From the NCBI RefSeq assembly GCF_056746865.1, contig NZ_CM163382.1: 64,000 nucleotides of DNA. One strand, given 5' to 3'. Shown in pieces: positions 63,080 through 64,000 of this stretch; the stretch's first letter is position 1; each line of letters opens with the position of its first letter. Below the pieces are notes generated by a model. The model made no database searches. It saw only the letters and a list, made by a program, of their open reading frames with translations, and had not been told where the DNA came from. A program made the position numbers and the translations under genes.

Positions 63080-64000
63080 AATGCGCAATACACTCATACC
63101 CATCTTCATTGCGATATGCTTGTTTATAACCGGTGTCACTATTTTGAACATCCAGCTCTGATATTCCGCAAAAGCAGAGTACCTGGCGGGAGCAAGATAT
63201 GCCGCCAACAATATCAATCATATACTTGAAGAAGCGTCACAGGCGACTCAAACGGCGGTTAACATTGCCGGGAAGGAATGCGACCTCGAGGAGCAATATC
63301 AGCTTGGCACTGAAGCAGCTCTGAAACCTCACCTGCGCACAATCATCATTCTCAAACAGGGAACGGTCTGGTGTACATCCTTACCGGGGAATCGGGTCCT
63401 ACTGTCTCGTATTCCTGTTTTCCCGGACAGTAATTTACTGCTGGCTCCGGCAATCGACACCGTTAATAGATTACCTATCCTGCTCTATCAGAGCCAATTT
63501 GCAGATACGCGCATTTTGGTTACGATAAGTGATCAGCATATTCGCGGGGCGCTTAATGTACCCTTGAAAGGGGTAAGGTATGTATTACGCGTGGCAGATG
63601 AAATTATTGGACCTACGGGTGATGTGATGACGCTTAATGGACACTATCCCTATACCGAGAAGGTTCACTCCACAAAATATCATTTCACTATTATCTTTAA
63701 CCCGCCGCCACTCTTTAGCTTCTACAGACTTATCGATAAAGGCTTTGGGATTTTGATATTTATTCTGTTAATCGCCTGCGCCGCTGCCTTCCTGCTTGAT
63801 AGGTATTTCAATAAAAGCGCAACGCCTGAAGAGATCCTGCGACGGGCTATAAATAATGGGGAGATCGTCCCATTTTACCAACCTGTGGTAAATGGTCGGG
63901 AAGGGACATTGCGGGGAGTTGAGGTGTTAGCCCGCTGGAAACAACCTCACGGTGGATATATATCACCCGCGGCATTTATTCCACTTGCTGAAAAATCCGG
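63080..64000 (+). pseudogene. pdeG: pdeG (ycgG) c-di-GMP phosphodiesterase gene with in-frame TGA at codon 30; runs off window end
   Basis: ATG 63080, MRNTLIPIFIAICLFITGVTILNIQL then TGA (63167..63169); same frame stays open to window end and reaches EAL-domain start. Confidence 0.55.

Follow-up and report, generated by a model that had tools for sequence, protein, structure and literature searches.

A nonsense mutation at codon 27 of the c-di-GMP phosphodiesterase gene pdeG marks a sub-branch of Escherichia coli ST69

Five phosphodiesterases of Escherichia coli, PdeG among them, carry a CSS domain and share one architecture, in which a first transmembrane helix (TM1) is followed by a CSS domain in the periplasm (about 200 residues, two of them cysteines), a second transmembrane helix (TM2), and a cytoplasmic EAL domain (PMC5897775). 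Phosphodiesterase activity toward c-di-GMP was demonstrated both for YcgG of K-12 and for YcgG2 of phylogroup B2 (PMC6385356). The ycgG2 allele arose by a 671-bp deletion that takes TM1 and the CSS domain together with the start codon and places the upstream leader next to a TTG at codon 225 (TTG225), and it yields an active enzyme of 283 amino acids. Truncation of the N terminus of YcgG/PdeG is recurrent in B2 extraintestinal pathogenic E. coli (ExPEC), ST131, NMEC, and some commensals (PMC10333796, PMC10459773, PMC6385356), and pseudogenes of c-di-GMP phosphodiesterases are a known theme in recently expanded pathogens (PMC10333796). The allele described here, pdeG W27*, adds a case of point nonsense to this published pattern of lesions at the N-terminal sensor end of pdeG/ycgG in ExPEC. 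It is very probably a genuine nonsense allele of pdeG (ycgG, b1168) that was inherited vertically from a single origin within the ST69 clonal complex, with loss of PdeG.

The window, by which we mean the whole stretch of 64,000 nucleotides that was analysed, ends in the bluF-ycgZ-ymgA-ariR-ymgC-pdeG region of E. coli (Table 1). The gene occupies the position of the pdeG orthologue in the bluF-ycgZ-ymgA-ariR-ymgC cluster, between ymgC, whose ORF precedes it after ycgZ, ymgA, and ariR, and ymgF, and the order from bluF to ymgF did not differ among the K-12, O157, and ST69 records. Between positions 62900 and 64000, strain 118UI showed no differences from the window and K-12 HMS174 was 96.4% identical to it at the DNA level. 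Over the complete gene, the 118UI allele differed from K-12 at 49 of 1524 nt, and pdeG as annotated in approximately 3900 E. coli genomes had 96 to 100% DNA identity to the window gene. The pdeG ATG is located at 63081-63083, which matches the start of the RefSeq CDS in both HMS174 and 118UI. An earlier note on this DNA had put the start of the ORF at 63080 and an in-frame TGA at codon 30; the TGA does fall within the interval given there (63080 to 63169), but the start is at 63081 and the stop is codon 27, after 26 sense codons. Another in-frame ATG is present at 63039, 14 codons 5' of the pdeG start (63039-63080, + strand, MAFSCIKPFGRDKQ-MRNT...), and it lengthens the listed ORF and is ignored by RefSeq; counted from this ATG, the TGA would be codon 41.

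Table 1. Coordinates of the pdeG region in the window
Feature	Coordinates	Strand	Remarks
ycgZ ORF	61538-61774		Precedes pdeG
ymgA ORF	61817-62089		Precedes pdeG
ariR ORF	62118-62384		Precedes pdeG
Translatable head of pdeG	63081..63158	+	ATG plus 25 codons, MRNTLIPIFIAICLFITGVTILNIQL; cytoplasmic N terminus and TM1 only
Premature stop TGA, codon 27 (W27*)	63159-63161	+	Alignment and gene-wide comparisons; 52 RefSeq records
CSS-motif sensor domain, periplasmic, residues 31-217	63171..63731	+	Open frame 3' of the stop; Pfam PF12792
TM2, about residues 221-239, GFGILIFILLIACAAAFLL	63741..63797	+	Translation; family architecture as in PMC5897775
In-frame TTG, codon 225	63753-63755	+	TTG also in Nissle, TTA in K-12; only restart candidate supported by the literature
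Start of EAL phosphodiesterase domain, cytoplasmic, from residue 251	63831..64000	+	Pfam PF00563; ends at the window end

The short head of the gene encodes TM1, with a mean Kyte-Doolittle hydropathy of 2.4 over residues 5 to 23. Beyond the TGA, the same frame (63162-64000) continues over 279 codons up to the end of the window, where its last residues are ...GVEVLARWKQPHGGYISPAAFIPLAEKS, and, as the earlier note had claimed, it contains no further stop and reaches the beginning of the EAL domain. The CSS-motif profile PF12792 matched the K-12 protein with E=1.4e-31 and the window translation with E=4.5e-32. The EAL profile PF00563 matched residues 251 to 486 of the K-12 protein, and in the window translation, where the window end cuts the domain, profile positions 2 to 56 were matched (E=3.5e-15). 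Because both domains were recognized, the frame after the TGA is the body of a real gene rather than a chance open frame. None of the NCBIfam models specific for PdeG was matched at its cut-off, and the best-scoring model, NF007839 (PRK10551, cyclic di-GMP phosphodiesterase), reached 275 bits even with the intact ST69 protein, compared with a cut-off of 461 bits; the assignment as pdeG orthologue thus rests on synteny and DNA identity.

Compared with the intact pdeG of K-12 and of ST69 strains with TGG (WP_001546816.1), the window gene shares the locus, the synteny, the start, the frame of 507 codons, and the CSS-motif and EAL domains, and it has TGA where these have TGG at codon 27. The architecture of the CSS-EAL family (PdeB, PdeC, PdeD, PdeG, and PdeN) is encoded in the window frame, with both Pfam domains matched, whereas the uninterrupted full-length ORF that the family requires is broken by the TGA. 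Judged from the reading frame, pdeG W27* is by descent a pseudogene of the CSS-EAL family and not a functional member of it.

The mutated base is window position 63161 (gene position 81), which is A in the window and G in the ancestral TGG. Codon 27 was TGG, encoding Trp27, in K-12, O157:H7 PV15-279, AF39, and Ecol_545, and 118UI was the only sequence of this alignment to share A at 63161 with the window. The carriers 118UI, AF46, and MS14387 had the same 1524-nt gene, each with one internal stop. Four ST69-type relatives with TGG, including M7424, WP8-S17-ESBL-12, and PK8275, differed at one of the 1524 positions (position 81, G versus A), and for these three named strains the annotation gives an intact PdeG (WP_001546816.1). 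The ancestral allele, 1524 nt long with G at position 81 and identical in the rest, was present in at least 60 RefSeq records. Since these records are identical but for the G and the relatives all have TGG, the comparison shows that W27* is a derived G-to-A transition in the third base of the Trp27 codon (TGG to TGA). A nonsense change of this kind had been suggested in the earlier note, and the comparison with K-12 and other strains that it proposed bore the suggestion out, with TGG at this codon in every non-carrier compared, ST69-type relatives included.

To describe the distribution of the allele, perfect matches to a 55-mer spanning the stop were counted among the approximately 3,860 RefSeq complete-genome records that contain the stretch. 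The TGA was found in 52 records, and a second 55-mer that avoids an adjacent polymorphism gave the same 52, so that there was no sign of the TGA on other backgrounds. The carriers came from humans (urine, blood, and stool), poultry, and water (wastewater, surface water, and seawater), and the countries of the records examined include Mexico, Australia, the UK, Japan, Norway, China, Korea, Poland, and Switzerland. In all 11 carrier records whose RefSeq annotation was examined, pdeG is listed as a pseudogene with "internal stop"; the allele is therefore already flagged in the public annotation of every carrier record examined. These numbers also decide against an error of sequencing or assembly in a single genome, an alternative that the earlier note had offered. 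Any single-base difference may be an error, and the assembly of one carrier, eco-241, contains two error-like homopolymer indels elsewhere in the gene, but nothing further favours this explanation. The change to TGA is a substitution and not a homopolymer indel, and the same base was recovered in 52 complete records that were assembled independently and come from a wide range of laboratories, hosts, and countries, on which ground the sequencing-error option was rejected as having next to no probability.

All carriers with a published type belong to ST69, an extraintestinal pathogen of phylogroup D. These are MS14387 (ST69, O17:H18; PMC10024524), SCU-313 and SCU-482 (both ST69; PMC7407071), and WP7-S17-ESBL-01 (ST69, O25:H4; PMC9598598). 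Other ST69 strains retained TGG, for example, AGR6137 (ST69, O15:H6, phylogroup D; PMC9676056) and WP8-S17-ESBL-12 (ST69, O15:H18; PMC9598598), and TGG was also found in M7424, a Shiga-toxin-producing strain of type O77g:H18. Thus, the TGA allele marks a sub-branch of ST69. The last 25 kb of the window (39001-64000) matched EC31 from a meat duck (NZ_CP056036.1), also a TGA carrier, as a single piece with 100% identity; EC31 is probably the strain from which the window derives or a member of the same clone. Near icd, other ST69 genomes vary in prophage content and gene arrangement, and this variation dominated the ranking of the 25-kb query.

Approximately 33 kb of flanking core sequence was aligned for three TGA and three TGG genomes of ST69. 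Among the 16 variable sites in these six genomes, only two separated TGA from TGG without exception, one being the nonsense site and the other a C/T single-nucleotide polymorphism 6.7 kb downstream, before minE. None of the 16 sites conflicted with a single origin. Some structure was visible inside the TGA group as well. All five examined carriers with differences in the first 1101 nt compared had A157T in common, and two others, B1.H1.1 and HR12-1, were assumed to carry it from their grouping in the identity lists; A157T is nested within the TGA carriers, which gives the group an internal clade structure. The simplest reading of these alignments is that one mutation occurred and was inherited by a sub-branch of ST69.

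Stop codon aside, the 1524-nt frame was untouched in 42 of the 52 carriers, which were identical over the whole gene and showed no secondary decay. Seven further carriers were examined, standing for 10 records by inference, and these yielded only two substitutions, one of them non-synonymous and the other synonymous, and a single assembly with two homopolymer indels. The synonymous change, L492L, was found in ECO_2_R and is probably common to ECO_1_S. The indels were those of eco-241 (locus L013), in which pdeG has +1 insertions at about positions 1011 (GGG to GGGG) and 1479 (AAAA to AAAAA) and is annotated as "frameshifted; internal stop"; they are probably errors of a long-read assembly and not real decay. 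Secondary mutations 3' of the stop were too few to inform on relaxed selection. The branch is too young for the intact downstream frame to say anything about function, either way. As a pseudogene allele, W27* is young, restricted to its lineage, and otherwise ordinary.

Translation from the native ATG would be expected to end once 26 residues have been made, where TM1 reaches the periplasm, so that this start would give neither the CSS sensor domain nor TM2 nor the EAL domain, and PdeG would be lost as a redox-sensing phosphodiesterase of the membrane. From the position of the stop it follows directly that the native start of the W27* allele cannot yield full-length PdeG. Programmed recoding of the UGA, as selenocysteine or by regulated readthrough, would be a way around this conclusion, and the codon is indeed UGA and its frame does continue, but nothing else points in this direction. 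A scan of 62700-64000 against Rfam matched no family, SECIS elements included, even at E<=10. In every relative the site is occupied by a normal Trp codon, TGG, and codon 27 is located at a membrane-helix boundary and not in a redox active site. With an ancestral TGG and no SECIS element in 62700-64000, a selenoprotein or other programmed use of the UGA was rejected as having a negligible probability.

[quoted passage not shown] We consider this unlikely, but several observations are consistent with it. Codon 225 is TTG in the window as in the B2 strain Nissle 1917, window positions 63711-63871 match the start region of the Nissle ycgG2 without a difference, and the TTG with the 42 nt before it, i.e., the initiation region of YcgG2, is preserved base for base in the W27* allele. 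YcgG2 was translated in vitro from TTG225 and had phosphodiesterase activity (PMC6385356), a TM2-EAL fragment of the paralogue PdeC was highly active (PMC5897775), and the recurrent N-terminal truncations of YcgG extend across B2, ST131, NMEC, and UPEC strains (PMC10333796, PMC10459773). The frame 3' of the stop is also intact in the 42 carriers mentioned above, but in so young a branch this would be expected regardless.

However, the distance from the stop to TTG225 is 592 nt, which is beyond the reinitiation range of a terminating ribosome, and the Shine-Dalgarno-like match before the TTG is weak (-4.5 kcal/mol, AAGG ending 10 nt 5'). Untranslated RNA is prone to Rho-dependent polarity and decay, and both polarity and mRNA decay would be expected over the long untranslated stretch before TTG225. 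A simple scan for the sigma-70 consensus found one internal promoter-like site, where 3.2 were expected by chance, and a consensus scan of the pdeG interior found no terminator. The search for a downstream restart that the earlier note had proposed was made as a sequence scan: after codon 27, no ATG, GTG, or TTG occurs in frame before codon 146, and TTG225 is a candidate farther downstream. The later in-frame start candidates have weak Shine-Dalgarno matches; those at codons 277 and 282 are stronger, but both codons are located within the EAL domain, and a start there would yield a truncated domain.

The TTG itself is not peculiar to the stop-bearing allele. It was also present in the intact alleles of O157, AF39, and Ecol_545, so that it was not acquired together with the stop, and among the alleles compared only K-12 had TTA at this codon. 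The start of YcgG2 was described as a rare TTG start codon created by point mutation (PMC6385356), and the same TTG occurs in the full-length alleles of ST69, O157, AF39, and Ecol_545. Since TTG is found in these full-length alleles and TTA in K-12 only, TTG225 is the usual state at this codon and did not originate with the B2 deletion.

As to readthrough, UGA is the leakiest of the stop codons and is misread at a low frequency by tRNA-Trp, and misreading by this tRNA would in principle restore the wild-type Trp27. The base that follows the UGA here is U, which reportedly favours efficient termination, and the yield of readthrough should therefore be very small. Taken at its most probable, then, W27* is a nonsense allele that would leave no meaningful amount of active enzyme in its carriers. 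The earlier note had suggested that the phosphodiesterase is inactivated; for the full-length protein this is seen directly in the sequence, while a complete loss of activity is the likely rather than the observed consequence.

The allele resembles ycgG2 and the other truncated forms of YcgG (Nissle 1917, CFT073 c1610, IHE3034, and ST131) in that the lesion is at the N-terminal sensor end, the part coding for the EAL domain is intact, and the lineage is an ExPEC lineage. It also has TTG225 and the 42 nt upstream of it in common with the B2 ycgG2; since the intact O157, AF39, and Ecol_545 alleles have TTG225 too, this feature does not discriminate the ycgG2 type. In contrast, the lesion is of a different type (point nonsense) and arose in another ExPEC phylogroup (D). 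All of the 671 bp that Nissle 1917 lacks, corresponding to window positions 63040-63710, are present in the window, and whereas ycgG2 yields an active enzyme, W27* has the untranslated interval between the stop and TTG225. The allele is also similar to the point and insertion sequence (IS) lesions that have made genes for EAL proteins into pseudogenes in recently expanded pathogenic clones (PMC10333796, PMC10459773); in those cases, in contrast to ST69 W27*, phenotypic consequences were measured.

In K-12, according to statements cited in two of these papers (PMC6385356, PMC10459773), pdeG is barely expressed, and its deletion is silent, with no growth phenotype. Neutral loss is therefore the default, and from these reports on expression and deletion in K-12 we infer that the loss of PdeG was neutral or mildly beneficial. 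A more far-reaching interpretation is that W27* represents a second, independent ExPEC route to removal of the PdeG redox sensor, with TM2 and the EAL domain made from TTG225, or that complete loss is pathoadaptive, and that the ST69 branch owes its spread in part to the allele; we regard this as speculative and give it little credence. If c-di-GMP levels, biofilms, or the expression of fimbriae were affected by W27*, the allele could be one source of differences among ST69 sub-lineages. None of the 12 best-ranked papers on ST69 and pdeG/ycgG mentioned the two together. As a single-base marker, the TGA cleanly divides ST69, a uropathogenic and bloodstream lineage of global importance, into 52 carriers and at least 60 otherwise identical intact records among the RefSeq complete genomes. 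The practical value of the finding is small.

Several other changes were observed in the neighbourhood of pdeG. The autotransporter gene ycgH, two genes 3' of pdeG and just past the end of the window, was frameshifted in both TGA and TGG genomes of ST69 and intact in Ecol_545 and AF39 (loci L001 5455-7101 and L020 22274-24936), and it is an older pseudogene of the same neighbourhood. An IS5 element was inserted within ycgZ in 118UI (locus L001 440-1875); the element is absent from the window, in which ycgZ is intact. An IS1 element was present between pdeG and ymgF in WP7-S17-ESBL-01 and HR5-1 (locus L021 21641-22338) and is likewise absent from the window. Upstream of the gene, an unannotated ORF of 28 codons, MKMEKILSSAWIFLMLSTMLSVDASASE, was found at 62952-63038 (+ strand), 42 nt 5' of the pdeG ATG, and its product resembles a signal peptide. 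In K-12 (from the second ATG), O157, and Ecol_545 this ORF was open; it was also open in Nissle, where four amino acids are changed, and the B2 ycgG2 deletion begins directly 3' of its stop codon. It could encode a leader peptide or a small protein.
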